DNA from: Eubacteriales bacterium
GTDB taxonomy: Bacteria; Bacillota; Clostridia; Oscillospirales; CAG-272
Assembly: GCA_045577415.1 (NCBI GenBank)
Contig: JAZNII010000052.1
Location: 992-64,991, forward strand
Direction of reading: 5' to 3'
Length of the DNA: 64,000 nucleotides
Part shown: piece by piece, positions 3,376-61,763 of the stretch
Layout of the letters: every line of letters starts with the position of its first letter
Position numbering within the stretch: position 1 is the first letter of the stretch
Program-made: the position numbers and the translations under genes
Notes under the pieces: model-generated
What the model saw: the letters and a program-made list of their open reading frames with translations, nothing else
The model's database searches: none
Told to the model about the DNA's origin: nothing

Positions 3376-3448
3376 GCTAAAAAATCGCTTGAAATTGTTA
3401 TCAATAGAATTGTACATTAAAAATTCGGCAAATTTGTTCTTTTCCCTA

Positions 3449-3477
3449 TTTACAAGCTATATTTTTTGTGGTATAAT
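3449..3477 (+). promoter_or_regulatory. sigma-A promoter of the three-gene TerB/ATPase/helicase operon
   Basis: TTTACA (3449-3454), a 17-nt spacer, then TATAAT (3472-3477) with an extended TGg. An AAAGGAGAGG RBS precedes the ATG at 3515. Confidence 0.6.
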
Positions 3478-3514
3478 AATATATTACAGAAAACTATGAA
3501 AAGGAGAGGTAAAA

Positions 3515-5302
3515 ATGTCTGAAAACGATAAAAATGACCGTCAAGATCTTGATTTTTGGAATTTGGATAAATATATAAAAAAACGTCCCTCTCCTGCTCC
3601 CGTAAGGCAGTTTTCAAAGAACGCTACCGAAGCGGTAACGATCGAGACACAGGGCAGTTCTCCCAAGGTGTCTGTCAATACCGCTAACGACAGCTCTCAT
3701 TTCTCCGATAGCAGGCTTTCCGTCAAGAGAGAAGCTGATACCGATAGCACGATAACACGCTTTATCCCCCCTCACAAGGACCCTGCATTTGCCAAGAAGT
3801 ACGTTATCGTTGAATATTTCCCCGAAAATCCATTGATAAAAAGCGTCAGGGTATGCTCCGAAAAGCCCGGAGAAAAGGTTTTCGTTGACACCAATCTTTT
3901 TATAAGAGAAAGGCGCGCCCTTCTGAACAGAAAGGCGGCGGAGTCTCCCTACGTCCCCTATTATTCATACTCTCCTCGCTACTCCCAGATGAGCCGCGCT
4001 CAGCTAAGCTATTATCTTTGGTGGCGAGAGAACACACAGAACGGAATTTTTCTTAAAGCCGACGAGTCCTATATAATCCTTTACGCGTACGAGCTTGCGG
4101 CGACGGGAGAGGGCGAGGATAAAGAGGCGGCGCTTGGTATGCTCTGTTCTCTTTTGCAGAACTACACCGATCGAGACATCAACGCCGTGTACCGCTTAAT
4201 GATAAGAGACCTTATCTGCGATTTCTGCCTCGTTCACGGAATTCCATCTCCCACTCACAAGCTTGGTGGCCTCGGCAATCAGCTTTTGTCGGGCGCGTTT
4301 CTGCCCGAATTCTTCATTGATCTGTCCGACCGTAACCGTTCAAGCGTTCTTGAAATGGGAATTGCTTCGATATCAATGTACGATTACAGAAGAAGCAAAT
4401 TCTATTCCGACGAAACAAGCAAGCTTTTCAAAAAGGCGATGAGCGGCGCTGTTGCCGCAATATTTTCCGATGACGCGGCGTTTAAAGCAGTCATGTCCTT
4501 TACCGACGGCATTTACGGTTGTGTCACCGCCGAGCGCCGTCCCTTTGCGAGAATGATAAATATCGTCAACAAAAGCGTAAAGCTTGAGATCACTTATTAC
4601 CAGCTTTCGAATATTCAGTCAGCAGTGACCGACGCAATGCGCTACTCCGAGAACAAGCTCCGCGAGTATATGGGTATCAAGAATAAGCTTCATATTATGT
4701 CGATAAACCCCCAAGTCAAAGCTGCTCTTGACGCTTATTTTTCCGAAAACTATCCCGCTATGCCCATAGTGGACAGACGGCGCAAGGCTAATGCCAACTC
4801 TGAACCCGTAGTTAATGAATACGACAAATTCTACGACGTTCCCAAGGCGGAAATATCTCCCGAACACGCTTTGGAGATAGAACGTGACTCTTGGAGTACC
4901 ACAAAAATATTGACCGAGGCGTTTTCGACCGAAGCCGACGACATTACGGAGGAAAGCACGTCTCTGAACGCTCTTCAGCTTATTATAGAACCAATCGGAG
5001 AGCCTGTGCCTCAAAAAACGGAAACAACCGTTTCCCACCTGCCTGCGACACAGCAATTGCAAATCAGTGGCGGTCTTTTGACACAGATAAAGGGAGAAAT
5101 CGGAGAAGTTGCCGATTTTATTGAGCTTTGTAAGTCGCCTACGCCCACGGAGCAACGCAGATTTGCTGCGTCACACGGCTTGTCGGTTGACGAGATAGCC
5201 GATAGCATAAACGAATGCGCCGCGAATGTTTTCGGAGATATTATCCTTGAAGACGTAGGCGGAGCGTACCGAATTATTGAAGATTATATTGACCAATTCT
5301 AA
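3515..5302 (+). CDS. sngA: TerB-N / TerB-C domain protein (Shango SngA-like)
   Basis: The central motif VPYYSYSPRYSQMSRAQLSYYLWWRENTQNGIFLKADESYIILYAYELA matches what I recall of TerB N-terminal domain proteins. The C-terminus (..SVDEIADSINECAANVFGDIILEDVGGAYRIIEDY) is TerB-C-like. It is the first gene of the operon. Confidence 0.7.
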   Translation: MSENDKNDRQDLDFWNLDKYIKKRPSPAPVRQFSKNATEAVTIETQGSSPKVSVNTANDSSHFSDSRLSVKREADTDSTITRFIPPHKDPAFAKKYVIVEYFPENPLIKSVRVCSEKPGEKVFVDTNLFIRERRALLNRKAAESPYVPYYSYSPRYSQMSRAQLSYYLWWRENTQNGIFLKADESYIILYAYELAATGEGEDKEAALGMLCSLLQNYTDRDINAVYRLMIRDLICDFCLVHGIPSPTHKLGGLGNQLLSGAFLPEFFIDLSDRNRSSVLEMGIASISMYDYRRSKFYSDETSKLFKKAMSGAVAAIFSDDAAFKAVMSFTDGIYGCVTAERRPFARMINIVNKSVKLEITYYQLSNIQSAVTDAMRYSENKLREYMGIKNKLHIMSINPQVKAALDAYFSENYPAMPIVDRRRKANANSEPVVNEYDKFYDVPKAEISPEHALEIERDSWSTTKILTEAFSTEADDITEESTSLNALQLIIEPIGEPVPQKTETTVSHLPATQQLQISGGLLTQIKGEIGEVADFIELCKSPTPTEQRRFAASHGLSVDEIADSINECAANVFGDIILEDVGGAYRIIEDYIDQF

Positions 5303-29064: not shown

Positions 29065-30367
29065 CGTATTCGTCCTCCTCTCCCGTTCCGCAAAGGAAAT
29101 ATACGGTATCTATCCGCACTTTTTGCGCCACCGCGACGATCTCGTCTTTGGTGACCGCTTTTATTTTATCCGCTACGTCCTCGGCACTTTCGTCAACGCC
29201 TGCCAGAAATCTTCTGAACTTGAACGCTTCTATCGCCGACGGACTGTCCGACATTTGCAAAAGTCCCGACAAAATGGTGCACTTTGCCGTCTCAATATCC
29301 TGCTCCGAAAAGCTTCCTTTTTGCATTTCAAGGAGCTGATTTTTTATTTCGGCATAAGCCTTTTCTCTGTTTTCTCGCTTGATGCCGCATCCGATCATCA
29401 ACGTTCCCGTAGCCGAGCTGTACGAGGAGTAGCAATAGTAGCAAAGGCTCAGCCTTTCTCTGGCGTTCATAAAGAGCTTGGCAACCGACGAGCCGCCAAA
29501 TATCTCGTTAAAAAGGCTCATGGCGTAGTAGTCACTGTCCTTCATGACAACGCCGCTTGTGCATCCAACGTTAAGTCTGCACTGCGACACGTTCATGGTC
29601 TCGTCAAGGGTTTTCAAATTAGCACAATCTTCGCGTAAAAATCCTTTTTCCTCACCAAAAAGCGATACCGACGAGCGACCGATTTTCGCAAATCTTTCGC
29701 TGACCAGATCTATTACCTCGCTTACGTCGTCGCTACCAACGTAGAAACATTCGAGGATCGAATTTTTGAGAAAATATTCAACGTTTTCACTTACCGACTT
29801 AAGGGTGATCTTCTCTAACTGCTCTGCCGTTCCCTCGACGGATATGCCCGACGGATCCCCTTCAAGCATAAGGCTTTTGCACCTTTCTGCCGCATACGCC
29901 TTCTGATCGTTTATCTTGGCTTTTATAGCGTCAATAGCAAGCTTCTTTTCGCTTTCAAAGTTACTCTCGGAGAGAAGTCCGTTTTCATCGCGGAGAGGCG
30001 CGAAAAGTATCTCTAAAATGACCTCGCAAACGCCCTTGACAATGCTATCACTGTCACCCTTGAACCTGTATCTGTCGCTTAATACCTCACAAGATATTCT
30101 GAAAGCGTGACGCTCGCCGACCGAGGTCGCGCGCCACGTGACGGTTGAACCGTAAAGCTGGTCAAGTCTCTTATTTATAGCGACCACAGAGGGGTATTTT
30201 TCGCATCCTCGCATCATTGTGGCAAGCATAAGTCTTGTCCTCGGCGATCTTTCGGCATCGGCGGGCAATATAAAATTGAATGACAGGCGCGACATTTTAA
30301 ATCGGTCTGTCCTTACCTTATGAAAACGCAGACCTGCGTCGGCTCTCTCAACTGTTCTTTCTATCAT
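29057..30367 (-). CDS. M16 family peptidase-like partner (no HxxEH motif seen)
   Basis: 436-aa M16-like protein that overlaps the downstream M16 gene by 8 nt, the typical paired arrangement. Confidence 0.75.
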   Translation of the reverse strand: MIERTVERADAGLRFHKVRTDRFKMSRLSFNFILPADAERSPRTRLMLATMMRGCEKYPSVVAINKRLDQLYGSTVTWRATSVGERHAFRISCEVLSDRYRFKGDSDSIVKGVCEVILEILFAPLRDENGLLSESNFESEKKLAIDAIKAKINDQKAYAAERCKSLMLEGDPSGISVEGTAEQLEKITLKSVSENVEYFLKNSILECFYVGSDDVSEVIDLVSERFAKIGRSSVSLFGEEKGFLREDCANLKTLDETMNVSQCRLNVGCTSGVVMKDSDYYAMSLFNEIFGGSSVAKLFMNARERLSLCYYCYSSYSSATGTLMIGCGIKRENREKAYAEIKNQLLEMQKGSFSEQDIETAKCTILSGLLQMSDSPSAIEAFKFRRFLAGVDESAEDVADKIKAVTKDEIVAVAQKVRIDTVYFLCGTGEEDEYDE

Positions 30368-30510
30368 TTCTGACCTTTATCCCCCGATAAGCGAGAGATA
30401 AATTCCTTTCAAATACATATTTAATATATTTTACACTATTTCTGTTCTTTTTTCAAGTGGAATTTATAATTTAATTCTTTTTTTGAAAAAGTTCTTGGAA
30501 GACAGGAGGT

Positions 30511-30554
30511 GTGGGGGAAAGAGACCTTCATTCAAGAAGGTCTCTTTCCCCCAC
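30511..30554. repeat. 19-bp perfect hairpin GTGGGGGAAAGAGACCTTC / GAAGGTCTCTTTCCCCCAC
   Basis: It lies just downstream of the mrp stop codon. It is probably a terminator-like element, although the U-tract on the minus strand is poor. Confidence 0.6.
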
Positions 30555-30563
30555 AAAACTCTT

Positions 30564-31400
30564 TTATTTATTACACTTCTCGATTATCTTGTCTGCCGCC
30601 GCGCTAAGGTAGTCGCAGTTTGCCGACTCTATTCTGCCGTTGTCCACGAACGCCGCCACCTGAGGGTCGATCGGAACCTTTGCGAGCAGGTCGTAACCGA
30701 ACTCATTCGCGATGTCGTCGATATGGCTCTCACCAAACACACGGATCTCCTTACCGCAATCGGGACACTTGATATAGCTCATATTTTCAACGAGACCGAG
30801 GACGGGTATCTGCATCATATCCGCCATATTAGCCGCTTTCTTAACGATCATAGCAACGAGATCCTGAGGACCCGAAACGATCACGCAACCGTCGATCGGA
30901 ATACTCTGGAAAACGGTAAGCGGAACGTCGCCCGTGCCGGGAGGGCAGTCGATGAGAAGATAGTCAAGGTCGCCCCAAGCGCAGTCTGTCCAGAACTGAC
31001 GGACAGTACCCGAAATAATAGAGCCTCTCCAGACCACGGGCGCGCTCTCGTCGTCAAGCATAAGATTGACCGACATGATTTTAATTCCCGTAGCTGTTTC
31101 GGGAGGAAGCATATTTCCCTCTCCGTCGCCCTCAACATCGGCGTGCATACCGAACGCTTTTGGGATAGAGGGACCTGTGATGTCGGCGTCGAGAATACCG
31201 ACCTTATATCCCTTTCTGCTGAGATTTACCGCAAGCATAGAGGTAACGAGAGACTTACCTACGCCTCCCTTTCCGCTCATTACCGCGATTATGTGCTTTA
31301 CGTTGCTGTATTTGTTAGGCTCGTCCTTGGGAATGCCGCCCGATTTGGACGGACAGTTCAAGCCACAAGTGGAACAGTCGTGTGTGCATCCTTCTGCCAT
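30564..31400 (-). CDS. Mrp/NBP35/ApbC family Fe-S cluster carrier ATPase
   Basis: Deviant Walker A SGKGGVGKS, an N-terminal Cys cluster MAEGCTHDCSTCGLNC and a CPxC-type motif (KCPDCG). Confidence 0.88.
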   Translation of the reverse strand: MAEGCTHDCSTCGLNCPSKSGGIPKDEPNKYSNVKHIIAVMSGKGGVGKSLVTSMLAVNLSRKGYKVGILDADITGPSIPKAFGMHADVEGDGEGNMLPPETATGIKIMSVNLMLDDESAPVVWRGSIISGTVRQFWTDCAWGDLDYLLIDCPPGTGDVPLTVFQSIPIDGCVIVSGPQDLVAMIVKKAANMADMMQIPVLGLVENMSYIKCPDCGKEIRVFGESHIDDIANEFGYDLLAKVPIDPQVAAFVDNGRIESANCDYLSAAADKIIEKCNK

Positions 31401-31547
31401 TTCAAACCTCCGAAATATATTTAAAGATAAATTTTACCAAACGTAATTATACAACATTATTCGCCAAAAAGCAATAGCTATTTCAAAAATTAAAAAATAA
31501 AAAGGAATCCCTCGAGGAATTCCTTTTTATTTTCTGCTTTGTGTCAA

Positions 31548-31739
31548 TTAAGCCTCTTTTACGTTGAGAACCTTCTTGCCGTTGTAGAAGCCGCAAACCT
31601 TGCATACGCAGTGGGGCTTGAGCATCTCGGAGCAAGCGGGGTTGGAGCATTTAACAAGTCCGGGCATAGTGAGCTTGGAGTTGTTGCTTCTTCTCTTATC
31701 TCTGCGTGCTTTGGACACTTTTCTCTTCGGTACTGCCAT
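31548..31739 (-). CDS. rpmF: 50S ribosomal protein L32
   Basis: MAVPKRKVSKARRDKRR.. with a zinc-ribbon C-terminus. The start is at 31739, so the ORF-track extension is rejected. Confidence 0.93.
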   Translation of the reverse strand: MAVPKRKVSKARRDKRRSNNSKLTMPGLVKCSNPACSEMLKPHCVCKVCGFYNGKKVLNVKEA

Positions 31740-31814
31740 TGTGAAACCTCCTCTCGAAAACGCTTTTCGCATTTTCGAATATAAATAAATTATTTTTTAC
31801 TGTTTTGGGGGCGT

Positions 31815-32333
31815 TTATTTGTCTTCTTCCTTGTTAAGGAGCTGCGCTAAGACCGCAAGACGCGGGTCGATCTCCTTTTTGGGGCAACCGCAGTCACCGC
31901 CCTTGAGAGATTTTCCGCATTTGGGGCAAAGTCCGGGGCAATCCTCGGAGCAAAGTATCTTACGGGGGAAATCAAGAAGAAGCGCTTCGGCGAGCTGCTC
32001 GTCGATGTCAAGACGACCGTTTTCAACAATAACGTACTCGTCTACGTTGTCCTCTATCTGTTCCTCGGTAAGGGTACCCTCGTCGGCTACCACTCTTTCA
32101 AAGTCAAGCACGAATTCACCCTCGACGGTATCGAGACACCTGTCGCACTCGGTCTCATACGCAAGCTGAGCCTGAGCCTTCAGTTGCATGTAACCTGCAC
32201 TGTCGGTTATCTCTCCCGTAACGAGCGCGTCGTCCTTGAAGCTGACTCTGTCCATGGGGATGGGTTCAAGCTTGTACTCAAATGTTATTCGGTTTTTCTC
32301 TCCCCTGAGGAGAGGACCTACGTCCAAAATCAT
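31815..32333 (-). CDS. yceD: YceD/DUF177 family protein
   Basis: It sits upstream of rpmF as in many bacteria and has a C-terminal cysteine pair region CSEDCPGLCPKCG..CGC. The start at 32333 has an AGGGTGGA RBS. Confidence 0.85.
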   Translation of the reverse strand: MILDVGPLLRGEKNRITFEYKLEPIPMDRVSFKDDALVTGEITDSAGYMQLKAQAQLAYETECDRCLDTVEGEFVLDFERVVADEGTLTEEQIEDNVDEYVIVENGRLDIDEQLAEALLLDFPRKILCSEDCPGLCPKCGKSLKGGDCGCPKKEIDPRLAVLAQLLNKEEDK

Positions 32334-32376
32334 ACAAATTCCACCCTTCATCAAGACATAAAACGCGACTTTAATT

Positions 32377-32405
32377 ATTATACATAAGAAATTGCGATTT
32401 GTCAA
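32377..32405 (-). promoter_or_regulatory. sigma-A promoter of yceD-rpmF
   Basis: On the minus strand TTGACA (32405-32400), a 17-nt spacer, then TATAAT (32382-32377). Confidence 0.6.
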
Positions 32406-32545
32406 GAGTTTTTTTCATTTTTGTGGGGGGATTTTTAGATTTTTTTGTTTTACTATGTTACTACTCATCCACCACTGCGTGGTCCCCCTTCCCTCACAAG
32501 GGAAGGCTATAAAATGAGCGCCCACGGTGTGAGCGCCCATAAAAA

Positions 32546-35200
32546 TTATTCTTCGGGAACGTAATTGTAAATTATAGTTGCGTTTTTGAGTTCGGAGTTA
32601 GGGGAAGCTATGTTGATTGCCGCCCAATCCTCCTCACTTCCAGTATAACAAACAATTTTAAGACTGTTACAATTATCGAACGCTATCGCTCCGATGCTTG
32701 TAACACCGCAAACTATAGTCACGCTCGTAAGTTTTGAACAGTTTACGAATGCTCCACCGTCAATGTGGGTGATGCTACCCGGTATAGTTATGCTCGTAAG
32801 GTTTACGCAATTATAGAATGCGTAAATTCCAATTCTAGTAATACCGTCAGGAATAGTGAAACTTGTATCAGCTTTGCCAATTGCATACTGAATAAGCGTA
32901 CCGTCTTTGCTATACAAATTACCGTCTATTGACTTATAATTCGCATTGTTCTTGTTTACAGTTATATTCTCAAGATTTGTGCAATTATATAGCGCATACT
33001 CTCCAATGCTTGTAACGCTGTCGGGGATTTCTATGCTCTTAAGGCTTCTGCAATTATATAACGCACACTCACCAATGCTTGTGACATCGTCAGGAATAGT
33101 GAAACTTGTATCAGTTTTGCCAATTGCATACTGGATAAGCGTGCCGTCTTTGCCATACAAATTACCGTCTATTGACTTATAATTCGCATTATTCTCGTCC
33201 ACAGTTATATGCTCAAGATTTGCGCAATTATAGAACGTACCCTCACCAATACTTGTAACACTGTCGGGGATAGTTATGTTCGTAAGGCTCGAGCAACCAG
33301 AGAACGCATAATCGCCAATGCTTGTGACACTGTCGCCGATTTCTATGCTCGTTAGGCTTCTGCAATAGTCGAACGCATAATCGGCAATTCCAACAGTATT
33401 CGTTCTCAACGATACGGAAGTAACAGAAGTATCGCAATCAATAACCCATTTATCAACATATGATACACCGTTTTCTGTTTGTATCAGCGCTTCGCAATCC
33501 GCGAACGCAGAAGAACTAATGCTTGTGACACTATCTGGGATTTCTATTCTCGCAAGGCTTGTGCAACCGGAGAACGCATATTTCCCAATGTTTGTTACAC
33601 TGTCGCCGATAGTTACGTTCGTAAGGCTTGTGCAACCAGAGAACGCAAAAGAACCAATGCTTGTGACACTGTCGCCGATAGTTACGCTCGTAAGGCTTGT
33701 GCAACAGTCGAACGCATTTTTCTCAATACTTGTGACACCATCGGGAATTACTACGCACGCAAGGCTTGTGCAATTAGAGAACGCATAAGAATCAATGTTT
33801 GTGACACTGTCGCCGATAGTTACGCTCATAAGACTTGTGCAATTAGAGAACGTAGCTCTACCAATGCTTGTGACACTGTCGCCGATTTCTACGCTCGTAA
33901 GGCTTCTGCAATAGTCGAACGCATAATTACCAATGTTTGTGACACTGTCGCCGATAGTTACGCTCTCAAGGCTTCTGCACTCACAGAACGCCTCCTCACC
34001 AATGCTTGTGACACCCTCTGGGATTTCTATACTCGTAAGTCTTATGCAATAATAGAACGCATAATCGGCAATTCCAACAGTATTCGTTCTCAACGATACG
34101 GAAGCAACAGAAGTATCGCAATCAATAACCCATTTATCAACGTATGATACACCGTTTTCTGTTTGTATCAATGCTTCGCAACTAAAGAACGCCATATCAC
34201 CGATGCTTGTGACACTGTCGGGAATTTCTATGCTCGTAAGACTTGCGCAATCGTAGAACGCATGATCACCAATGCTTGTGACACTGTCGGGGATATTTAT
34301 GCTTGTAAGGCTTGTGCAAAAATAGAACGCATAATCACCAATGCTTGTGACACTGTCGGGGATATTTATGCTCGTAAGGCTTGTGCAACCATAGAACGCA
34401 TAATCGCCAATGCTTGTGACACCGTTGGGGATAATTATGCTCGTAAGGATTGAGCAATCGTAGAACGCATGATCACCAATGCTTGTGACACTGTCGGGAA
34501 TAGTTATGCTCGTAAGGCTTGAGCAACCGTAGAACGCCGAAATACCAACGCTTGTAACACTGTCGGGGATTACTACGCTCGTAAGACTATCGCAATTTGC
34601 GAACGCCAAATAACCAATGCTTGTGACACTGTCTCCTTCTGGTGATGTTAAAGGAATAACAATATCATTATCGGTACAAGTTCCTATTCCTCTAACATAG
34701 CAGGAGCCATCGCCATTTGATGTAAATTTAAGTCCTTCGCTTGGTGCAAATTCGTTGCCACACACGGAGCAAACATAATTTACGAGTTTGTGATCAGTTG
34801 TAGGTAACTCCATGTATGTAGTATATTCGCATCTCGAACAGTTTGCGTAAGCATCCCAGCCGCTTTCAGTACAAGTAGGTGCTTGTGCTTCATGGGTTAT
34901 TTCATTATGACCCAGTGCGTCAATTGTTTTTGTCTCTTTTTCTCCGCAAGCACAATTACGCTCTTGCTCACCCTTTTCGGTACAGGCGGGTTCTTTGGTT
35001 GTGATCCATTCGCTGAAGACGTGACTGTGTGGAGCGTTGGTTTCTTCACCGTCATCAGTTTGAGTTGACTCGGTATTGCCGTCATCGGGCTGAGTGGACT
35101 CGGTGCTACCGTCATTCTTATTTCCAAAATCGCACGCAGCGAAAGTGGTCAACGCAAGGCAAACGATCAGCAAAAGGGCTAAAAGCTTTGTTTTCTTCAT
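32546..35200 (-). CDS. BspA-type leucine-rich-repeat surface lipoprotein
   Basis: Signal peptide with lipobox (LTTFAAC) and an N-terminal Cys/His-rich segment. About 25 LRR units of the type IPDSVTSIGDYAFxxCxSLTS follow. The gene is highly repetitive at the DNA level. Confidence 0.88.
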   Translation of the reverse strand: MKKTKLLALLLIVCLALTTFAACDFGNKNDGSTESTQPDDGNTESTQTDDGEETNAPHSHVFSEWITTKEPACTEKGEQERNCACGEKETKTIDALGHNEITHEAQAPTCTESGWDAYANCSRCEYTTYMELPTTDHKLVNYVCSVCGNEFAPSEGLKFTSNGDGSCYVRGIGTCTDNDIVIPLTSPEGDSVTSIGYLAFANCDSLTSVVIPDSVTSVGISAFYGCSSLTSITIPDSVTSIGDHAFYDCSILTSIIIPNGVTSIGDYAFYGCTSLTSINIPDSVTSIGDYAFYFCTSLTSINIPDSVTSIGDHAFYDCASLTSIEIPDSVTSIGDMAFFSCEALIQTENGVSYVDKWVIDCDTSVASVSLRTNTVGIADYAFYYCIRLTSIEIPEGVTSIGEEAFCECRSLESVTIGDSVTNIGNYAFDYCRSLTSVEIGDSVTSIGRATFSNCTSLMSVTIGDSVTNIDSYAFSNCTSLACVVIPDGVTSIEKNAFDCCTSLTSVTIGDSVTSIGSFAFSGCTSLTNVTIGDSVTNIGKYAFSGCTSLARIEIPDSVTSISSSAFADCEALIQTENGVSYVDKWVIDCDTSVTSVSLRTNTVGIADYAFDYCRSLTSIEIGDSVTSIGDYAFSGCSSLTNITIPDSVTSIGEGTFYNCANLEHITVDENNANYKSIDGNLYGKDGTLIQYAIGKTDTSFTIPDDVTSIGECALYNCRSLKSIEIPDSVTSIGEYALYNCTNLENITVNKNNANYKSIDGNLYSKDGTLIQYAIGKADTSFTIPDGITRIGIYAFYNCVNLTSITIPGSITHIDGGAFVNCSKLTSVTIVCGVTSIGAIAFDNCNSLKIVCYTGSEEDWAAINIASPNSELKNATIIYNYVPEE

Positions 35201-35394
35201 TGTTTTTCTCCTTTAAATGAAAAATAAAAAGTGCGCAGCCGAAGCTACGCACAAAAAATACGTCGCTCCATTTGCTGCGACACAATTTCGTAAACCCTAA
35301 TCTAAAAGTAGAATGCGAAAAAGGAGTACGTATTTTTATCATATAATAAAAATACCCACTTTTAGATAGGATTATTTAATTGTGTCGCACCCTC
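35201..35394 (-). promoter_or_regulatory. structured 5' leader of the LRR lipoprotein gene (rod-like helix, anti-SD, terminator/antiterminator)
   Basis: Three stacked helices form a rod. The first pairs 35389-35378 with 35287-35276 (12 bp). The second pairs 35373-35367 with 35299-35293 (7 bp). The third pairs 35365-35358 with 35309-35302 (8 bp). A 10-bp AU hairpin spans 35355-35330, and CUCCUUU sits at 35326-35320. The terminator is listed separately. Confidence 0.55.
35221..35252 (-). terminator. intrinsic terminator inside the LRR gene leader (attenuator)
   Basis: The minus-strand RNA reads GUGCGUAGC UUCG GCUGCGCAC UUUUUAUUUUU, a 9-bp stem with a UUCG tetraloop. It ends about 20 nt before the RBS. 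No upstream co-directional gene exists that it could terminate. Confidence 0.7.
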
Positions 35395-35423
35395 ATTATA
35401 GCACCAACGCAAATAATTGTCAA
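35395..35423 (-). promoter_or_regulatory. sigma-A promoter of the LRR gene leader
   Basis: On the minus strand TTGACA (35423-35418), a 17-nt spacer, then TGcTATAAT (-10 at 35400-35395). The predicted transcription start falls at the first helix arm. Confidence 0.65.
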
Positions 35424-35539
35424 GACAATTCGGTCAAATTTCGCTTTTTCACTTTTGCAAAACAAACTGCCACTCCACTTGACACAACACAAAAACAATG
35501 ATATAATTGTATAGGAAAAAATCAAGAAAGGAGAGCTTT

Positions 35540-36748
35540 ATGCGAAACGTTGGCATCGTTTGCGAATACAATCCGTTTCACACGGGGCATAAGCGACAGA
35601 TAGACATTCTGCGAGAGAATGGCGCGGAACTGATAATCTGCGCTATGAGCGGCAACTTTTCCGAGCGCGGAGAGTTGACCGTTGCCGACAAATATACGCG
35701 CGCGGAGAGTGCGGTCAGATGCGGCGCGGACATCGTAGTTGAGCTTTCCTTTCCCTTTTCGTCCTTTTCCGCAGAAGGCTTTGCAAGATCGGGCATTCAT
35801 ATTTTAGCGGAGCTTGGTTGCGACACTCTCTGCTTTGGAAGCGAGAGCGCGGACAAGGAGCTTTTGACACGGGCGGCTGAGGTCGTCATATCCGAGGATT
35901 TCGTCCGCTCCTACACCGAAGCCACAAAAAGCCAAGGCGCGGCAAGGTCCTATTTTGACCTGCTTGCGGCGCATCTCGGCGAGGACACGGCGCTCTTGTC
36001 CAACGACATTTTAGCGATCTCCTACATCGCCGCAATCAAGCGAGCGAATTTAAATATGGATATATTCCCCATCAAGCGAGAGGGCGCGGCGTACACCGAA
36101 AGTCAGCTTGGCGACGAGCTTCCCAGCGCGACCGCCATCCGCGAAGCAGTCAAAAATTCTCCCGAAGGCTTCTTTGCCACATCGGGCAAGCATCTGCCCA
36201 CCGAGGCTCTTGAAGTCCTTCGCGCGGCTCAATCGGCAGGCTACGCCCCTGTATTTACCGAGAACATCGGCTCGGATATATCGAGCTTTTTCAAGCTTAT
36301 GTCGACAGAGGATATTGTCGCAAGAGCTATCAAAAAATCGTGCGGCGGCACTTCCGTCTGCGAGGACGGCTGCGGCATCGTCGAGCGGCTTTGCAACTGC
36401 GCCAAAAAGACCGCAAACTTCGAGGAATTCGTGGGCAACGCGTACAATTCGCGCTACACGGACGCGCGTATCAATCGAGTAATTCTCTTTTCACTCATTG
36501 GAGTTTCGGATATTTTCGCAAAATCCGTTCCCGATTACACAATTCTTTTGGGAGCAAGCGAAAAAGGACGCAAATATCTTTCAACTATCCGAAAAACAAT
36601 AGATTTTCCCATCATCACCAAGCCTGCCGACGCGTACGCAGGAGTGACGACCGATATTCTCCGTCTTTCCGATTCTCTTTACTCGTCTGCTATGCCAAAG
36701 GGCGTAAGCTTCGATTATTTTTTGAAAAAGCACCCTTTTATGGATTAA
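35540..36748 (+). CDS. tmcAL: tRNA(Met) cytidine acetate ligase (YlbM/TmcAL family nucleotidyltransferase)
   Basis: The N-terminus GIVCEYNPFHTGHKRQI matches the YlbM/TmcAL signature. The start at 35540 has an AAAGGAGAG RBS and a TTGACA-17-TATAAT promoter upstream. Confidence 0.85.
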   Translation: MRNVGIVCEYNPFHTGHKRQIDILRENGAELIICAMSGNFSERGELTVADKYTRAESAVRCGADIVVELSFPFSSFSAEGFARSGIHILAELGCDTLCFGSESADKELLTRAAEVVISEDFVRSYTEATKSQGAARSYFDLLAAHLGEDTALLSNDILAISYIAAIKRANLNMDIFPIKREGAAYTESQLGDELPSATAIREAVKNSPEGFFATSGKHLPTEALEVLRAAQSAGYAPVFTENIGSDISSFFKLMSTEDIVARAIKKSCGGTSVCEDGCGIVERLCNCAKKTANFEEFVGNAYNSRYTDARINRVILFSLIGVSDIFAKSVPDYTILLGASEKGRKYLSTIRKTIDFPIITKPADAYAGVTTDILRLSDSLYSSAMPKGVSFDYFLKKHPFMD

Positions 36749-36867
36749 AAATCGCAAATTGAGCGAAAATATTAACAATTTATTGTTGACTTGACCCCAT
36801 TTGTGTGTTATAATTTATTATTGATATATTTTTTGAAAGGATTTCGAGCAATCGAAGCAGGTGATAT

Positions 36868-37161
36868 ATGATGGCAGAGACTCGCGAGATGGTCAAGGGC
36901 AACATCCTTTACTACAAAAACAAGCCCCTGGTCAGAGAAAAGGACACTATTTGCTACGGCGATTTTACCGAAAAGTGCGTTCTTATATTTGAGATAATGT
37001 CTTACGTCGAAAAGGAAGGCGTTAAGGTGCCGGGCAAGATATTTATTCAGGTTATCGACTCCGAAAGCGGAAAAATACTTAAGCAGGCAGATAAGGAAGG
37101 TATGTACGAGGCATTTACCTACGGCATATTCTGGTACGAAAAATTCTTGTCTGAAAACTGA
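36868..37161 (+). CDS. hypothetical small protein
   Basis: The 97-aa ORF has a TTGACT-17-TGtTATAAT promoter, an AGGTGA RBS and a strong terminator directly downstream. It is preferred over the overlapping 128-aa antisense ORF. Confidence 0.55.
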   Translation: MMAETREMVKGNILYYKNKPLVREKDTICYGDFTEKCVLIFEIMSYVEKEGVKVPGKIFIQVIDSESGKILKQADKEGMYEAFTYGIFWYEKFLSEN

Positions 37162-37180
37162 TCTTTTCATTATAAAAATA

Positions 37181-37212
37181 ATCCCTTGTTGCATTCCACT
37201 GCAACAAGGGAT
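37181..37212. terminator. bidirectional intrinsic terminator
   Basis: ATCCCTTGTTGCA / TGCAACAAGGGAT forms a 13-bp stem flanked by A-rich and T-rich runs. Confidence 0.8.
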
Positions 37213-37216
37213 TTGT

Positions 37217-38203
37217 TTATATTATATCGTTTCCGACAGGTGTGTAGAACAATTTTGCAAACTCGGCGGCGGTTTTGGACTTGGGGAGCGCCCACATGAC
37301 CTTGGCAACAACCGTCTCGGTCGTCATGTCGTAGGCTTCGGGAAGCTCGTATTTCTGCTTGATGCGAAGTCCAACCTGATAAACGCCCATGTCACTTCCC
37401 TCGTGAGGCACTTGAGTGGTGATAACGATGCGAACTCCTTTTTCAATAAGCTTTTCGATCTTCTCTACGAACTCGTCGTTGTCGTAGTAAGGCAGACCGC
37501 CAACACCGAAGCTCTCGATGATGACCGCGTGGTATCTGTCGGCGATAAAGTCGAAAATGTCGGCACTCATTCCGGGAATAAGCTTGACTACGATGACCGA
37601 TGAGTCGATCTCGTCGCAGAATATTGGGTCGCCACAGGTCTTCTCGCGGATATAGTATTTCACAGAGCCGCGGATAAAGCCGATCTCGGGATAGTCGATG
37701 CTGGAGAAAGCGTTAAAGCTCTTGGTTCTGGTCTTTCTCGCGCGAGTGGCGGCGATTATCTTGTCGCCAAATACGATATGTACGCCGCAGGCATCATCGT
37801 CCGACGCATACATAAAAGCATCGGTGAGATTTTCCCTTGCGTCGGTGTCTCTTTTTTCAATCGGTATCTGCGCGCCCGTAAGTACGATTGGCTTTCGGCT
37901 GTTTTGTATTAGATAATGGAGCATCGCCGCGGCATACGCCATAGTGTCGGTGCCGTGGGTGATGACGAAACCGTCGTACTCGTCGTATACCTTGCGGATA
38001 TAGCGCGCTATCTCAAGCCAGTATTCGGGACGCATATTGGTGCTGTCCAGATTGTACAGCTGGACGGTTGAGACATGGCAGATCCTTCCGACCTCCGGAA
38101 CGTGAGAAAGCAGCTGCTCCGATGCAAGCACGGGTACAAGACCGTTTTCACCCTCGGCAGATGCGATAGTACCTCCCGTTGTTATTAATAGAATATGTTT
38201 CAT
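37217..38203 (-). CDS. ansA: type I L-asparaginase
   Basis: TTGGTIAS and HGTDTM motifs, 328 aa. Confidence 0.9.
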   Translation of the reverse strand: MKHILLITTGGTIASAEGENGLVPVLASEQLLSHVPEVGRICHVSTVQLYNLDSTNMRPEYWLEIARYIRKVYDEYDGFVITHGTDTMAYAAAMLHYLIQNSRKPIVLTGAQIPIEKRDTDARENLTDAFMYASDDDACGVHIVFGDKIIAATRARKTRTKSFNAFSSIDYPEIGFIRGSVKYYIREKTCGDPIFCDEIDSSVIVVKLIPGMSADIFDFIADRYHAVIIESFGVGGLPYYDNDEFVEKIEKLIEKGVRIVITTQVPHEGSDMGVYQVGLRIKQKYELPEAYDMTTETVVAKVMWALPKSKTAAEFAKLFYTPVGNDII

Positions 38204-40494: not shown

Positions 40495-42285
40495 TTATTT
40501 TATCTCCTCAAAATCCACGGCTCCGTGCTTACAGAGGGGGCAGATGAAGTCCTCGGGGAGATTTTCGCCCTCGTAGATGTAGCCGCAGATCTTGCAGACG
40601 TAGCCTTTTTTGCCCTTTGTCTCGGGCTTGGGCTTGACATTGGCGTGATAGTAGGAGTAGGTCATGGTCTCTCTGTCGGAGATGACTCTCGCCTCGGTCA
40701 CGGAGCAGATAAACATTCCGTGGGTGTCGAGGTCAACATACTGCTCTACCTTAAGCGACATAAAGGAGTTGATATTTCTCGGAAGGAATACCAGACCGTT
40801 GTCGGAACGCAGAGGTTCGCAATCAGCGAACTTGTCCACGTTTCTGCCGCTCTGGAAACCGAATTTCTCAAATACGGCAAAGGGAGCGTCTACCGTGAGG
40901 CAGTTGATATTCATAATTCCCGTCTGCTTGATGACGTGATGAGAATAATTCGCCTTATTGATGGTCACGGCGATCCTGTTGGGTGTGCTTGTGACCTGTG
41001 TTACGGTATTGACGATAAGACCGTTGTCCTTCTTGCCGTCGTTTGAGGTCACCACGTAGAGACCGTAACCTATCTTAAAGAGCGCGGTGAGGTCGTTCTT
41101 ATTTGCGGTAGAGTCCTGCTGTGCGAGATAGTCACGGCAAAGCTCCTCTGCAAGAGCGTTAAGCTGATTCGTGCTTTCCTCGTTAAGGGCGGAAAGTATC
41201 TTAACGGTATTCTCGGCATAAGTCAGGTTCTTGCTCTTTTCAAGCATTCCCTTCATGACCTTTGTAGCCATGGGCGCCCAGCTTCCGTTCTCAATGAACG
41301 CAACGGTTCTGTTACTGTAATTGCGCTCGGTCAGGTGGTTGATAAATTCTCTCATAAAGGGGAAAATTTCGGCGTTGTAGGTAGTAGTCGCCAATACGAG
41401 CTTACTGTATCTGAAGGCGTCCTCGACCGCCTCTGCCATATCGCATCTTGCAAGATCGTTGACCACGACCTTGGGGCAACCGTTAGCTCTCAGCTTGTCG
41501 GCAAGCTGAAGAACCGCCTTTTTGGTGTTGCCGTAGACCGAGGTATAGGCGATAACGATTCCCTCCTCCTCGACCTGATAGCTTGACCAGGTGTTGTAGA
41601 GACCAAGGTAATATCCAAGATTTTCGGTGAGAACGGGTCCGTGAAGGGGGCAGATAGTCTGAATGTCAAGTCCTGCCGCCTTTTTGAGGAGAGATTGAAC
41701 CTGCGCGCCGTACTTGCCGACGATACCGATATAGTAGCGTCTTGCCTCGCACGCCCAGTCCTCGTCTGCGTCAAGCGCGCCGAATTTGCCGAAGCCGTCA
41801 GCCGAGAAAAGAACCTTATCGCAGCTATCGTAGGTCACAATGACCTCGGGCCAATGCACCATAGGCGCGGTAACGAAGGTCAACGTGTGCTTTCCGAGAG
41901 AAAGAGTATCACCCTCGCCCACAACGATCTGCTTGTCCGCAAAATCCTTGCCGAAGAAGTTCTTCATCATAACGAAAGCCTTCTGAGAGGAAACTATTTT
42001 CGCCTCGGGGTAAGCGTTCAGGAAGTTGACGATATTCGCGCTATGGTCGGGCTCCATGTGCTGAATGATCAGATAGTCGGGCTTTTTTGCGCCAAGTGTA
42101 TTCTGAATGTTATCAAGCCACTCGTGGGTGAAGTTTGCGTCTACGGTATCCATAACCGCGATCTTTTCGTCGATTATAACGTATGAATTGTAGGAAATTC
42201 CGTTAGGCACTACGTATTGACCCTCGAAAAGGTCGATATTTCGGTCGTTTACACCTACGTACTTAATATCATTTGTAATTATCAT
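40495..42285 (-). CDS. multidomain flavodiiron protein: diiron MBL-like + flavodoxin + flavin-reductase-like + rubredoxin
   Basis: HMEPDH diiron ligand motif and a flavodoxin core. The C-terminal part has a flavin-reductase-like domain. The final module YVCKICGYIYEG..FICPLCKHG is rubredoxin-like. The start at 42285 rejects the ORF-track extension. Confidence 0.85.
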   Translation of the reverse strand: MIITNDIKYVGVNDRNIDLFEGQYVVPNGISYNSYVIIDEKIAVMDTVDANFTHEWLDNIQNTLGAKKPDYLIIQHMEPDHSANIVNFLNAYPEAKIVSSQKAFVMMKNFFGKDFADKQIVVGEGDTLSLGKHTLTFVTAPMVHWPEVIVTYDSCDKVLFSADGFGKFGALDADEDWACEARRYYIGIVGKYGAQVQSLLKKAAGLDIQTICPLHGPVLTENLGYYLGLYNTWSSYQVEEEGIVIAYTSVYGNTKKAVLQLADKLRANGCPKVVVNDLARCDMAEAVEDAFRYSKLVLATTTYNAEIFPFMREFINHLTERNYSNRTVAFIENGSWAPMATKVMKGMLEKSKNLTYAENTVKILSALNEESTNQLNALAEELCRDYLAQQDSTANKNDLTALFKIGYGLYVVTSNDGKKDNGLIVNTVTQVTSTPNRIAVTINKANYSHHVIKQTGIMNINCLTVDAPFAVFEKFGFQSGRNVDKFADCEPLRSDNGLVFLPRNINSFMSLKVEQYVDLDTHGMFICSVTEARVISDRETMTYSYYHANVKPKPETKGKKGYVCKICGYIYEGENLPEDFICPLCKHGAVDFEEIK

Positions 42286-42325
42286 TTTATACCTCTTATA
42301 CCTCAATTATGATTTTCATTTGTTT

Positions 42326-43027
42326 TTACCAAAGTAAGGGGAGAATAATACCGCCGCTAACAAGCGATTCGAACCATTCCACAAGATACTCTATTATGTA
42401 AGGCATAACACTGCCCAATATCTCATGTATAATATCTCCCAAAACTCCGGTTGCTATAGATCCAAAAACCGGCGCTAATATTGCTAAAATCGGAGTAATT
42501 ATTGATATTATACTGCTAAGAAACGACGTAACAAAAGCAAGCACAAAGCTGACAATAAACGAAAGTACATCAAACACAAACGCAAGAACGAATAATATCA
42601 GCAAAAGAACTATTATCAATCCCAGCAATATTGTGGATATAAGTCCGAAAATATATCCCAACTTCATTATCTTTGACGTATTGCCCTTCTTCTTGACGAT
42701 CCTTGAAAATACAATGGCAAGGATACCAAAGATTAGAGGAGCTATACACATCAAGATATGTACTATAGGAACGATAGATCCTACAATTAAGCTCAAAATG
42801 ATCGTGAGCAGACCAAAGAGCAAATTCATCATTGCTCCGGCAAACGCGATAAACGCGAATATCATAGATAAAAGCGCCAACACTTTACCGTGTTGCTTTT
42901 TCACTGTTTTTGTGTCACTGCCGTCAAGCATTTCAACCTTATATGTCTCATTTTTATCTGAAGCATTTAACGATTCGTCAACCAATTCACTCGTCACAAC
43001 GGTTGTTTCCTTTTTCTTATCTTCCAT
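42326..43027 (-). CDS. hypothetical polytopic membrane protein
   Basis: A short polar N-terminus is followed by a long run of hydrophobic helices. The start is the ATG at 43027 with a GAGGTG RBS. It is arranged in tandem with a similarly organised gene. Confidence 0.5.
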   Translation of the reverse strand: MEDKKKETTVVTSELVDESLNASDKNETYKVEMLDGSDTKTVKKQHGKVLALLSMIFAFIAFAGAMMNLLFGLLTIILSLIVGSIVPIVHILMCIAPLIFGILAIVFSRIVKKKGNTSKIMKLGYIFGLISTILLGLIIVLLLILFVLAFVFDVLSFIVSFVLAFVTSFLSSIISIITPILAILAPVFGSIATGVLGDIIHEILGSVMPYIIEYLVEWFESLVSGGIILPLLW

Positions 43028-43063
43028 AATGAACACCTCAAAAGTTATTTTTTATCATTTTAA

Positions 43064-43765
43064 TTACAGCAGAAACGCCGCGCATAACGTTGATGGGATT
43101 ATCAAATTCACCAAAAACTGTACCAACAAATCGATCATAGGATTAATTATTAGCAGTAACACTACTGCAATCAAAAGAAGCAATATCTCCAACAATCCCA
43201 GTGCAACGATTAGTAAAACAATGAACACAAACGCTAAAATGGGAACTAACACAAACAACAAGCTTAAAGCAAGTCCGAAAATTCCCGCCAGAATTCCTAT
43301 AGTTGAATAGATGGATTTATGCTTATATCTTTTCGTAGACAGAGCTGCCCCAATACCTATAAGCGCAAAGATCGGATTTCCCATAAAAACGCTACAGGAA
43401 AGCAATCCGCACACGAAAGAGATTATTGAGCGTTCCTGCAAGACAGTTTCGTCGGGAATCTTTTTAGCCGTCTTTTTTTTCTTTAATCCTTTACCCTTTT
43501 CCCCACTTGCGTCGAAAGAATCGGGGGTTCCGTCATCATCCTCGGACACATGGGACTCACTATACTTTTTGAAATCCTCGTCGTCTAAATGTATCTCGAC
43601 GGGTTCATGGTCGAAATAATCGTCCTCCGAGCCATTCCCCTCATGAAATTCTTCATTCGAAGGGTCTACGAGGGACTTTTTATTTTCAGTCCCCTCGGTC
43701 TCGACCTCTTGATCTGTATTTTGAAGCTCAGCTTCATAAGATTGCGTGTTTTTTTCGTCTTTCAT
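43064..43765 (-). CDS. hypothetical membrane protein with an acidic N-terminal region (DUF4190-like TM pair?)
   Basis: An N-terminal segment of about 110 aa rich in Asp/Glu is followed by several TM helices. The family assignment is tentative. Confidence 0.45.
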   Translation of the reverse strand: MKDEKNTQSYEAELQNTDQEVETEGTENKKSLVDPSNEEFHEGNGSEDDYFDHEPVEIHLDDEDFKKYSESHVSEDDDGTPDSFDASGEKGKGLKKKKTAKKIPDETVLQERSIISFVCGLLSCSVFMGNPIFALIGIGAALSTKRYKHKSIYSTIGILAGIFGLALSLLFVLVPILAFVFIVLLIVALGLLEILLLLIAVVLLLIINPMIDLLVQFLVNLIIPSTLCAAFLL

Positions 43766-43796
43766 AATTAAACACCTGAATTTACTAAATTTGCGT

Positions 43797-45164
43797 TTAC
43801 TCCACCGAATATCCTTGCTTGCAGATCTCGTCCGTAACGATCTTGATACATCTTCGGCAGGTCTCGTCGTCCTTCGCCTCCGACATTACTCGGATCACAG
43901 GCTCAGTTCCCGACTTGCGAAGCAACATTCTTCCGTCTCCGCAAAGATCCGCCTCGGCGCGCTTCAGAGCTGCAAGCACGTTTTCGTCCTTCATAACCTT
44001 TTCTTTATCAGCCTCGCGCACTCTTACATTAACAGTCATCTGAGGATAGGTGACAACAGGCTCTGCCAGCTTTGCCAAAGTAGCCTTCTTGGCGATCATT
44101 ACCTCCATCATCTTAAGGCTGGTAAGGACTCCGTCCCCCGTAGACGCAAAGCGGCTGAAGATTATATGACCCGACTGCTCTCCGCCAATGCAGTTGTTAT
44201 GCTCGGACATATAGTCATGAACGTTCTTATCTCCAACAGCGGTCTGGGCATAGTCGATGCCGATCTCGTCAAGCGCCTTGAAAAAGCCAAGGTTGGACAT
44301 AACGGTTGCAACTACGGTATTGTTGGTAAGCTCGCCAAGCTCCTTGAGGTAACGGGAATAGATATATAGTATCTTATCGCCGTCTACTACCTGACCGTTT
44401 TCGTCAACGCAAAGGCAACGGTCTGCGTCTCCGTCGAAGGCAAAGCCCACGTCCATGCCGTTTTCAACCACATACTTGCAGAGATGCTCGATGTGTGTGC
44501 TTCCCGCGTCGCGGTTGATGTTCGTTCCGTCGGGGTCGGCGTTGATAACGTAGGTTTTTGCTCCGAGAGCGTCAAAAACAGCCTTTGCAATAGTCCAGGA
44601 CGCGCCGTTTGCGCAGTCAAGAGCGATCTTATACTTTTTGAAGGAGTACTTTCCAAGGGAGATGAGATAGCCGACGTAGCGGTTTCTTCCCGCAACGTAG
44701 TCAACGGTGCGACCTATCTTTTCCTTAAGCGCAAAGGGGATCTCACCGATCTTGCCGTCAAGATAATCCTCTACCTTCTCAATAATATCATCGTCCATCT
44801 TCTCGCCGTGAGCGTTGATGAGCTTGATACCATTATCGTAAAAGGGATTATGGCTTGCGGAGATCATAATTCCGCAGTCAAAGGAATCGACCTTGGTAAT
44901 ATACGCAACTGATGGTGTGGTGGTAACGTGCATAAGACAAGCGTCAGCGCCCGACGCGGTTATACCTGCCGCAAGCGCGTACTCAAACATATAGGACGAG
45001 CGTCTGGTGTCTTTACCGATAAGGATCCTCGCGCCCTCGTCGTCGCCCTCGTGGTTTTGTCCGTAGTACCAACCGAGAAAGCGTCCGATCTTAAATGCGT
45101 GATCAACTGTTAAAACAACGTTAGCCTCGCCTCTGAATCCGTCTGTTCCGAAATATCTCCCCAT
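43797..45164 (-). CDS. glmM: phosphoglucosamine mutase
   Basis: GTDGFRG motif and the phosphoserine loop SASHNP. The start at 45164 has a GGAGAA RBS. Confidence 0.93.
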   Translation of the reverse strand: MGRYFGTDGFRGEANVVLTVDHAFKIGRFLGWYYGQNHEGDDEGARILIGKDTRRSSYMFEYALAAGITASGADACLMHVTTTPSVAYITKVDSFDCGIMISASHNPFYDNGIKLINAHGEKMDDDIIEKVEDYLDGKIGEIPFALKEKIGRTVDYVAGRNRYVGYLISLGKYSFKKYKIALDCANGASWTIAKAVFDALGAKTYVINADPDGTNINRDAGSTHIEHLCKYVVENGMDVGFAFDGDADRCLCVDENGQVVDGDKILYIYSRYLKELGELTNNTVVATVMSNLGFFKALDEIGIDYAQTAVGDKNVHDYMSEHNNCIGGEQSGHIIFSRFASTGDGVLTSLKMMEVMIAKKATLAKLAEPVVTYPQMTVNVRVREADKEKVMKDENVLAALKRAEADLCGDGRMLLRKSGTEPVIRVMSEAKDDETCRRCIKIVTDEICKQGYSVE

Positions 45165-61687: not shown

Positions 61688-61763
61688 TGGTCTGAGTGAC
61701 AAGACTTGAACTTGCGGCCTCTACCACCCCAAGGTAGCGCGCTACCAGCTGCGCCACACCCAG
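61688..61763 (-). tRNA. tRNA-Pro (anticodon GGG), CCA encoded
   Basis: I folded this by hand and obtained a 76-nt cloverleaf. Acceptor stem is CTGGGTG/CACTCAG and D arm is GCGC-AGCTGGTA-GCGC. The anticodon arm is CTACC-TTGGGGT-GGTAG. The T arm is GCAAG-TTCAAGT-CTTGT, followed by ACCA. Confidence 0.88.

Follow-up and report, generated by a model that had tools for sequence, protein, structure and literature searches.

A new family of leader RNAs with a predicted rod-embedded, toehold-gated anti-antiterminator upstream of accessory genes in gut Clostridia

Why should a gene with a single recognizable promoter, and a consensus one, carry an intrinsic terminator between that promoter and its open reading frame (ORF), with no other promoter intervening? 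The question is raised by a locus in an Eubacteriales bacterium (Clostridia; Oscillospirales; CAG-272), of which a stretch of 64,000 nucleotides (nt; contig JAZNII010000052.1, positions 992 to 64,991), hereafter called the window, was analysed. At this locus a rod-shaped leader RNA precedes the gene of a lipoprotein with leucine-rich repeats (LRR). The leader belongs to a new, previously uncatalogued RNA family with an unusual anti-antiterminator that is embedded in the rod and, as modelled here, gated by a toehold. We hold, with moderate confidence, that the members of this family are transcription attenuators built from five segments.

A sequence-only reading of this DNA had described a promoter, a first helix (P1), a rod, an AU hairpin, a CUCC-containing segment, a terminator and a ribosome-binding site (RBS), and had proposed that they form a promoter-proximal structured leader of no recognizable class. 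All of these features are present at the positions collected in Table 1. The RNAfold energy of positions 35195-35394 (200 nt) is -67.4 kcal/mol, compared to -37.5 +/- 4.1 kcal/mol for dinucleotide shuffles, none of which (0/200) folds as well (z = -7.36); the minimum free energy (MFE) fold of the window's own leader is the antiterminator fold described below. The lack of a match to a known class was borne out as well. At gathering score, the sole Rfam 15 match in the 64-kb window is a tRNA gene (61691-61763, minus strand). With the threshold relaxed to E ≤ 10, the best match on the transcribed strand of the leader is freshwater-2, which scores 22.6 bits where the gathering threshold is 49.9, and lies mainly over the RBS, and the leaders of 14 other family members likewise gave no Rfam 15 match at gathering score. 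No published description of the family was found, in a search that included a sequence-string search of the first 200 of the 408 supplementary files of Fremin & Bhatt 2021; the family may be one of the unnamed candidates that large microbiome screens have produced by the thousand.

The first two homologues are located on unverified human faecal virome scaffolds (sensitive blastn against a phage collection), upstream of lipoprotein and zinc-ribbon protein genes. A blast search with these against 80 loci of LRR relatives recovered diverged copies before LRR lipoproteins in other Clostridia metagenome-assembled genomes (MAGs; L007, L014, L040 and L067), and nhmmer added the members L004 and L026. 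A search with the N-terminus of the LRR protein gave only weak, fragmentary relatives, and a plasmid collection gave no match. In IMG/VR, two strict patterns found a single locus (L086), so the element is not a phage feature; a degenerate pattern gave two true and four false matches there. Searching metagenomes with the degenerate pattern TTGT...GCRRCWR...GRRG...GYRTTTTT, derived from the conserved 3' tail, yielded at least 120 loci, and the family comprises at least 113 distinct members once a complementary P1 5' arm is required. All family counts given here (n = 113 and subsets) are among the matches listed; more members exist. Membership and copy number were assessed with a profile hidden Markov model: a profile made from 83 homologues and excluding the window sequence matches the window at 35389-35223 with nhmmer (E = 4.5e-30, 99.6 bits).

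The members share one layout, and the window leader has all of its elements: an extended -10 promoter about 5 nt before P1, a rod consisting of P1, P2 and P3 with a CUCY 3' bulge, a conserved tail (GCARCAA-GGAG-N3-4-GYRUUUUU) and a terminator. The -10 element ends exactly 5 nt before P1 in 87 of 111 members, 88 carry TG and 89 a -35-like hexamer spaced by 17 nt, while a terminator hairpin and T-tract directly follow the tail in 112 of 113. With the start site placed by promoter geometry, the 5' end would be buried in P1 in all members; in the window, transcription would begin at about 35389/35388, the first nucleotides of P1. All eight members folded first had the same rod fold and the same bulge. 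Those carriers that have names are uncultured MAGs (Christensenella-like, Clostridia or Eubacteriales) from the guts of humans, rabbits and ruminants. Four members lie on contigs labelled viral, namely L084 (MT835845.1), L085 (MT837627.1), and L086 and L088 (both IMG/VR), and some copies may be moron-like passengers of prophages or of mobile elements of other kinds. In several loci, one gene is preceded by tandem leaders that each have a promoter of their own: there are three in L194 (3431-4000), two each in L161 (501-916) and L191 (224-597), and arrays of two or three also in L119, L138, L157 and L172. The gene that follows is often a small 64-aa XRE regulator. Three codons of the same gene survive after the upstream copy in L161, so it is the whole module whose duplication gives rise to the arrays.

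Five helices are conserved in these leaders, with clear covariation for P1, P3, the 2:3 helix and the terminator, as counted on a MAFFT alignment (A2) of 84 sequences. RNAalifold on this alignment finds P1 (13 bp) and the terminator, together with numerous compensatory changes. P1 is 96.6% paired (83 sequences), with double changes in 7 of 13 pairs, for example CG38/GC33/UA11 and CG63/AU19. The P3 helix, formed by segments 1 and 2, is 91.3% paired with double changes in 5 of 9 pairs (column 60:90, GC34/AU31/GU7), and the terminator, formed by segments 4 and 5, is 95.5% paired with double changes in 8 of 9. The partner that the sequence-only reading missed is an anti-antiterminator: according to duplex predictions for individual sequences, segment 2 (consensus GGUAAAAAYGCA..CUCY) pairs over 14-15 bp with segment 3 (GGAG-N3-4-RYGYRUUUUUC) of the tail. 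In the window this comprises a perfect 10-nt complement (35328-35337 with 35254-35263) plus CUCC with GGAG. Over 15 bp the 2:3 helix is 91.4% paired, double changes occur in 7 of 15 pairs, and columns 90:178 and 91:177 never break. The duplex has a mean energy of -18.0 kcal/mol, compared to -12.3 when shuffled, and a member's own partner beats those of other members in 90 of 113 cases. Anchored counts agree: the purine just 5' of the U-run in segment 3 and its partner in segment 2 form GC in 56 members, GU in 36 and AU in 21 with no A.C, and the next position is CG in 85, UA in 20 and UG in 8 with no C.A. Furthermore, in 95% of sequences the C behind the U-run of segment 3 pairs with a conserved G in the P3 loop (column 83); the conservation of this G is not explained by P3 and is explained by the 2:3 helix.

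The fifth helix, the antiterminator (3:4), joins the linker and segment 3 with the 5' arm, the loop and the first 3'-arm nucleotides of the terminator over 15-20 bp; it was defined by hand from duplex predictions, because automatic column-pair dynamic programming gave unstacked artefacts. The window pairs UGGAGC.ACGUAU with GUGCGU.GCUUCG, and GCA with UGC. For this helix the covariation is weaker and is accompanied by an energy test: the mean duplex energy is -19.6 kcal/mol, compared to -16.7 between members (self better in 94 of 112), -11.7 when shuffled and -16.7 for the terminator alone, and the core is 91% paired. The 3:4 pairing also explains why the UUCG loop of the terminator is conserved. 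The sequence-only reading had been right in the general idea of a novel cis-regulator with competing terminator and antiterminator pairings. The antiterminator it had proposed, between the 3' arms of P1 and of the terminator, fared differently: the GCAGC/GCUGC complementarity is present, and pairing across the family (78.5%) is hardly above that of column shuffles (77.4%), which does not support the role. An alternative register was rejected too (89.9% against 89.7% in shuffles). Over both registers, double changes occur in 0-1 pairs and the pairing breaks where P1 varies; the complementarity is a by-product of conserved sequence. The terminator does resemble a miniature P1, the P1 3' arm being about 90% complementary to the terminator 3' arm (A2 columns 152-159 with 213-222; in the window 35285-35277 with 35239-35232); this resemblance shows no covariation and extends over 8 nt in the UGCUACACAA subfamily.

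Because neighbouring segments share strands (1:2, 2:3, 3:4 and 4:5), only two global combinations are available, {1:2 + 3:4} and {2:3 + 4:5}. The first (state A: P1, P3 and the antiterminator) is 90.7% paired, compared to 82.7% in shuffles (0/500) and at most 50.5% with slid partners; the second (state B: P1, the 2:3 helix and the terminator) is 94.3% paired, compared to 86.4% in shuffles (0/500). Crude mean energies, before any pseudoknot penalty, are -70.3 kcal/mol for state A and -74.8 kcal/mol for state B, and by this estimate the two states appear balanced and nearly isoenergetic. In the proposed mechanism, the rod would form first, transcription starting at the first base pairs of P1, and would present at its apex P3 followed by the CUCC bulge. 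As segment 3 emerges, its GGAG would probably dock on the exposed CUCC, nucleating a helix that then displaces segment 1 from segment 2. If this happens, the anti-antiterminator and the terminator would coexist (state B) and transcription would stop about 30 nt before the start codon (OFF). If P3 holds, segment 3 would stay free to pair with the emerging segment 4, and RNA polymerase would read into the gene (state A, ON). The output would be set by whatever shifts the equilibrium between P3 and the bulge.

Several points weigh against this attenuator model. We infer termination, read-through, the start site, the order of strand displacement and the direction of regulation alike from sequence. 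The members are related to one another, so the shuffle controls overstate significance. The search pattern imposed part of the conservation in the P1 3' arm, the linker and segment 3; the partner strands (the P1 5' arm, segments 1 and 2 and the terminator) were not imposed by it. Segments 1 and 3 are nearly identical in sequence, so that part of the 2:3 covariation is shared with P3, and the GGAG/CUCC flanks on their own show no self-versus-cross excess (49/97). Topologically, the 2:3 helix is pseudoknotted relative to P1/P2, and the linker measures 6-9 nt while the rod spans about 25-30 bp; pairing in cis is therefore possible only if P1 frays or the internal loop between P1 and P2 allows the rod to bend. 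Segments 2 and 3 could instead pair in trans between molecules.

The genes behind the leaders have little in common. A same-strand ORF preceded by a Shine-Dalgarno (SD) sequence follows in 97 of 113 members, at a median of 30 nt after the terminator (interquartile range 25-56), and a Pfam scan of 94 downstream proteins returned 73 families. The sequence-only reading had tied the element to LRR and variable surface proteins; LRR_5, the commonest family, accounts for only 9 of the 94. It is followed by Zn_Ribbon_1 (6; the commonest zinc-ribbon family, with which other zinc-ribbon families overlap), SLH (4), RicinB, CHAP and small XRE helix-turn-helix proteins (3 each), AMP-binding and SHOCT (2 each) and an Ltp-type superinfection-exclusion lipoprotein (1). 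Visual inspection identifies many of the N-termini as lipoprotein or signal-peptide sequences. A recurrent protein of 51-53 aa (MD..FF/FKD.LFDLINESD...), with no Pfam assignment among the top families, stands directly after the leader in L092, L112 and L133. Upstream of 84 members, the neighbours are unrelated housekeeping genes and occasionally relaxase, recombinase or IS200 genes, with no recurrent regulator family among them. The module thus accompanies heterogeneous, often surface-exposed accessory genes and is not specific to LRR proteins.

Such a gene set would also suit a riboswitch for a small molecule or second messenger, in which the rod and the 2:3 pseudoknot form an aptamer stabilised by a ligand that locks segment 3 away, so that the terminator forms and the gene is OFF. 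The regulons of signalling-molecule riboswitches such as those for cyclic di-GMP are similarly heterogeneous and rich in surface and accessory genes, tandem copies exist here, the two states are predicted to be nearly isoenergetic, and the succession of anti-antiterminator, antiterminator and terminator matches the platform of many OFF riboswitches, for example SAM-I. The alignment speaks another language. Outside the pattern-imposed positions, those that are invariant or at least 90% conserved are all helical (P1, the U-run, the A-run, segment 2 and the terminator), whereas variation is found in the P3 loop, at the P1/P2 hinge and in the distal bulge; a conserved pocket of unpaired nucleotides is not visible, a moderately firm result of the MAFFT alignment. 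The rod interior accepts insertions of 30-130 nt, no Rfam riboswitch model matches, those for c-di-GMP-I/II included, and the 73 families among the 94 proteins point to no common pathway, all of which makes a riboswitch unlikely. As the conserved positions are all helical and the genes lack a metabolic theme, the input to the attenuator is more likely a protein or RNA that acts in trans, or else a kinetic or physical cue, with P3 and the bulge as the target, than a small-molecule pocket.

A strong promoter, about 165 nt of structured RNA and a good terminator would equally describe an independent small RNA gene that acts in trans and lies upstream of other genes by happenstance. Conservation extends to the exposed bulge and the apical sequences, which could base-pair with other RNAs, among them segment 3 of sister copies, and a terminated leader RNA would accumulate if termination were the default. 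Happenstance fits poorly, though, with an SD and start codon placed a median of 30 nt downstream on the same strand in 97 of 113 members, with no room for another promoter; in the window, too, the gap between terminator and RBS is too short for one, and a promoter scan of the cassette containing the gene (32448-35477) found no promoter for the LRR gene other than that of the leader. A conserved antiterminator that overlaps the terminator would moreover be purposeless in a plain small RNA gene, and we regard this explanation as improbable. A dual role can also be envisaged, a cis attenuator whose terminated product acts in trans as well.

Marginally less probable still is that the leader chiefly controls translation or mRNA stability, the CUCCUUU bulge masking the RBS as a thermometer or as a switch relieved by a protein, the blunt 5' rod stabilising the mRNA and the terminator being secondary. 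An anti-SD role of this kind had been suggested by the sequence-only reading, and the complementarity between CUCCUUU and AAAGGAG does exist in the window; pairing to the RBS finds no support in the family, where complementarity is not gene-specific (-8.75 kcal/mol for self against -8.38 for cross pairs, self better in 47 of 97). CUCC with GGAG(G) is generic, and the conserved, covarying partner of the CUCC context is the GGAG of the leader's own segment 3; the reading would also leave the conservation of terminator and antiterminator unexplained. One member, L084, offers a 10-nt match to its own translation initiation region, a perfect complement of AUUUUCAUAU with AUAUGAAAAU (about 2130-2145 and 2236-2250) from the bulge to the SD-AUG spacer, which is probably due to chance, there being no such trend family-wide. 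As for stability, a 5' end buried in P1 should protect all members from 5'-end-dependent decay, the role known for 5' stem-loop stabilisers in Firmicutes, and a function of this sort is compatible with attenuation.

The structure is maintained at the level of RNA. In 103 of 113 members the sense rod folds more stably than its reverse complement (mean difference -8.6 kcal/mol), and sense folds contain 490 G.U pairs compared to 162 for antisense. For the rod interior, z averages -5.1 and is below -3 in 94% of members, even as the P2 5' strand shows an identity between members of 0.29, about random; P2 was analysed per sequence since MAFFT and RNAalifold could not align it. Insertions of 30-130 nt in longer members are tolerated within the rod and in L007, by eye, look like branches above P1. 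Selection therefore acts on the sense-strand RNA, preserving structure without sequence in a stretch whose flanking promoter and terminator are both fixed. A feature of the DNA itself (a MITE or the palindromic remnant of a mobile element, a segment that inverts, or an operator at which a dimeric DNA-binding protein makes a loop) is accordingly very improbable, for while the leader region is a 114-bp imperfect palindrome within an inserted cassette, P1 arm sequences are conserved and some members lie near relaxase, recombinase or IS200 genes, the strand asymmetry with its threefold excess of sense G.U pairs, the single orientation of upstream promoter and downstream terminator, the single copy in 64 kb, the absence of sequence conservation in P2 and the conserved asymmetric 3' tail all speak against it.

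The features of the locus are given in Table 1.

Table 1. Elements of the leader and its surroundings, in window numbering; leader parts lie on the minus strand throughout unless marked.
Feature	Position	Strand	Remarks
sigma-70-type promoter, TTGACA (35423-35418), 17-nt spacer, TGcTATAAT (-10 = 35400-35395)	35395-35423	-	12/12 consensus plus TG (extended -10)
Spacer, -10 to P1		-	5 nt
P1 5' arm UGCGACACAAUU	35378-35389	-	Perfect 12-bp partner of 35287-35276
P2 5' strand	about 35372-35358	-	MFE fold; pairs with 35309-35294, one bulge; sequence variable in family
Segment 1 = P3 5' arm GUAUUUUUAUU	35345-35355	-	AU hairpin P3; pairs with 35340-35330, loop AUAU
Segment 2 = P3 3' arm GAUAAAAAUAC + bulge GUACUCC(UUU)	35320-35340	-	Partner: segment 1 (P3) or segment 3 (anti-antiterminator)
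Asymmetric 3' bulge, 18-20 nt	35310-35329	-	Unpaired in rod state; CUCC toehold at 35326-35323
P2 3' strand	35294-35309	-	MFE fold
P1 3' arm AAUUGUGUCGCA	35276-35287	-	Perfect 12-bp helix with P1 5' arm
Linker GCAAAU	35275-35270	-
Segment 3 = GGAG-CGAC-GUAUUUUUU	35269-35253	-	Pivot strand; partner: segment 2 (anti-antiterminator) or segment 4 (antiterminator)
Intrinsic terminator GUGCGUAGC-UUCG-GCUGCGCAC	35231-35252	-	9 bp, 6 GC; 5' arm + UUCG loop = segment 4, 3' arm = segment 5
Terminator U-tract UUUUUAUUUUU	35220-35230	-
RBS AAAGGAG (35214-35208) and start codon ATG (35200-35198)	35198-35214	-
Regulated gene, 884-aa lipoprotein with BspA-type LRR_5 repeats	32546-35200	-	Lipobox LTTFAAC; LRR_5 E = 6e-191
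Two hairpins after LRR stop codon, CGCUC..GGGCG then CUCAUUUUAU; and CCUUCCCU..AGGGAAGG	32470-32540	-
Cassette: promoter, leader, LRR gene and 3' hairpins, 3,030 bp	32448-35477	.	blastn against closest NCBI relative L002
yceD-rpmF promoter, TTGACA-17-TATAAT	32405-32377	-	12/12; downstream of LRR gene
tmcAL promoter, TTGACA-17-TATAAT with TG	35479-35507	+	12/12
Divergent TmcAL/HIGH_NTase1 homologue	35540-36748	+	Own perfect promoter at 35479-35507

In the window, the leader and its gene sit between the promoters of tmcAL and yceD-rpmF. In the closest relatives available (L002 and L003, with TmcAL 86% and 80% identical), tmcAL is directly divergent from yceD-rpmF and no LRR gene is present; neither the LRR gene nor the leader occurs in TmcAL relatives at 80-94% identity, and synteny led to no homologous leaders. 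Alignment with L002 by blastn gives 92% identity for 30000-32447 and 87% for 35478-38000, and the segment in between replaces 65 bp. From these flanks and breakpoints it follows that the promoter, leader and LRR gene constitute a self-contained, lineage-specific cassette. Yet another gene occupies the site in a 94%-identical relative (L001), which marks the site as a hotspot for accessory cassettes. As the LRR gene has no promoter of its own, its expression would depend on the choice between read-through and stop in the leader. Three consensus promoters (leader, tmcAL and yceD-rpmF) fall within 3.1 kb, and neither of the hairpins after the LRR stop codon meets the criteria of the terminator scan. 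The leader element occurs once in the 64-kb window. Elsewhere in the window, stretches 1-4000 and 42001-44000 have a lower G+C content (0.39-0.40, compared to about 0.47 elsewhere) and may likewise have been acquired.

BspA-type LRR proteins, lipoproteins and other surface proteins shape the contacts of gut Clostridia with host, phage and neighbours, and to our knowledge almost nothing is known about how such proteins are regulated in the uncultured members of this group. A portable promoter-leader module before more than 100 accessory and surface genes implies a common control point, which can be found and tested. We tentatively suggest, as a possibility that is still rather doubtful, that the leaders supply the cis half of a control system, as yet undiscovered, by which uncultured gut Clostridia would switch horizontally acquired genes co-ordinately across a regulon, among them LRR adhesins, lipoproteins, zinc-ribbon membrane proteins and small XRE regulators. 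The trigger that would flip this pseudoknot-gated attenuator of four helices would be a dedicated RNA-binding protein, a trans RNA or a signalling molecule, the trans RNA possibly being the terminated leaders themselves, pairing via segments 2 and 3. If the attenuator model is true, the family would add a new class to RNA-family catalogues, provide a marker for moron-like accessory cassettes, represent a compact natural strand-displacement switch, and improve annotation, since its terminators sit inside 5' untranslated regions and not at gene ends.

Several known systems share parts of this architecture. Like T-box leaders, the family has an extended, irregular 5' stem that contains an asymmetric internal loop, and behind it antiterminator and terminator helices that compete; unlike them, it shows no T-box model match, T-box sequence or specifier-loop motif, its genes are not related to aminoacyl-tRNA, and its bulge pairs with the leader's own 3' tail. 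With the 5' stem-loop stabilisers of Firmicutes, such as those of ermC and aprE, it would share a transcript that starts inside a stable helix without a single-stranded 5' tail, given the start site predicted here; those stabilisers are simple hairpins without downstream terminator/antiterminator logic. The 200-bp leader in front of infC-rpmI-rplT in Bacillus subtilis, for which L20-dependent attenuation has been described (PMC1865079), is loosely similar in size and general mechanism. As portrayed there, that leader serves autoregulation of a single ribosomal-protein operon, in contrast to more than 100 copies before unrelated accessory genes, and no sequence or Rfam similarity connects the two. 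In SAM-I (S-box) OFF riboswitches, too, the anti-antiterminator of one state lets the terminator form and the two folds are similarly stable; the present leader differs in lacking a visible ligand-binding core and a riboswitch model match, and in a rod interior that varies and takes insertions. The pyr attenuators of B. subtilis combine a PyrR-dependent anti-antiterminator, an antiterminator and a terminator in the 5' leader. Both systems have three tiers of mutually exclusive helices before an intrinsic terminator, and in both the decision would turn on whether the anti-antiterminator captures the 5' strand of the antiterminator. Our leader has no Rfam match to a PyrR site, and its genes are unrelated to pyrimidine metabolism. 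What is unusual for an attenuator is that the anti-antiterminator strand lies in the apex of a 5'-terminal rod of about 25-30 bp, where it is masked by P3 and would be reached through a toehold bulge, with the two states in apparent balance, which adds to the pyr scheme a fourth layer and a pseudoknot topology.

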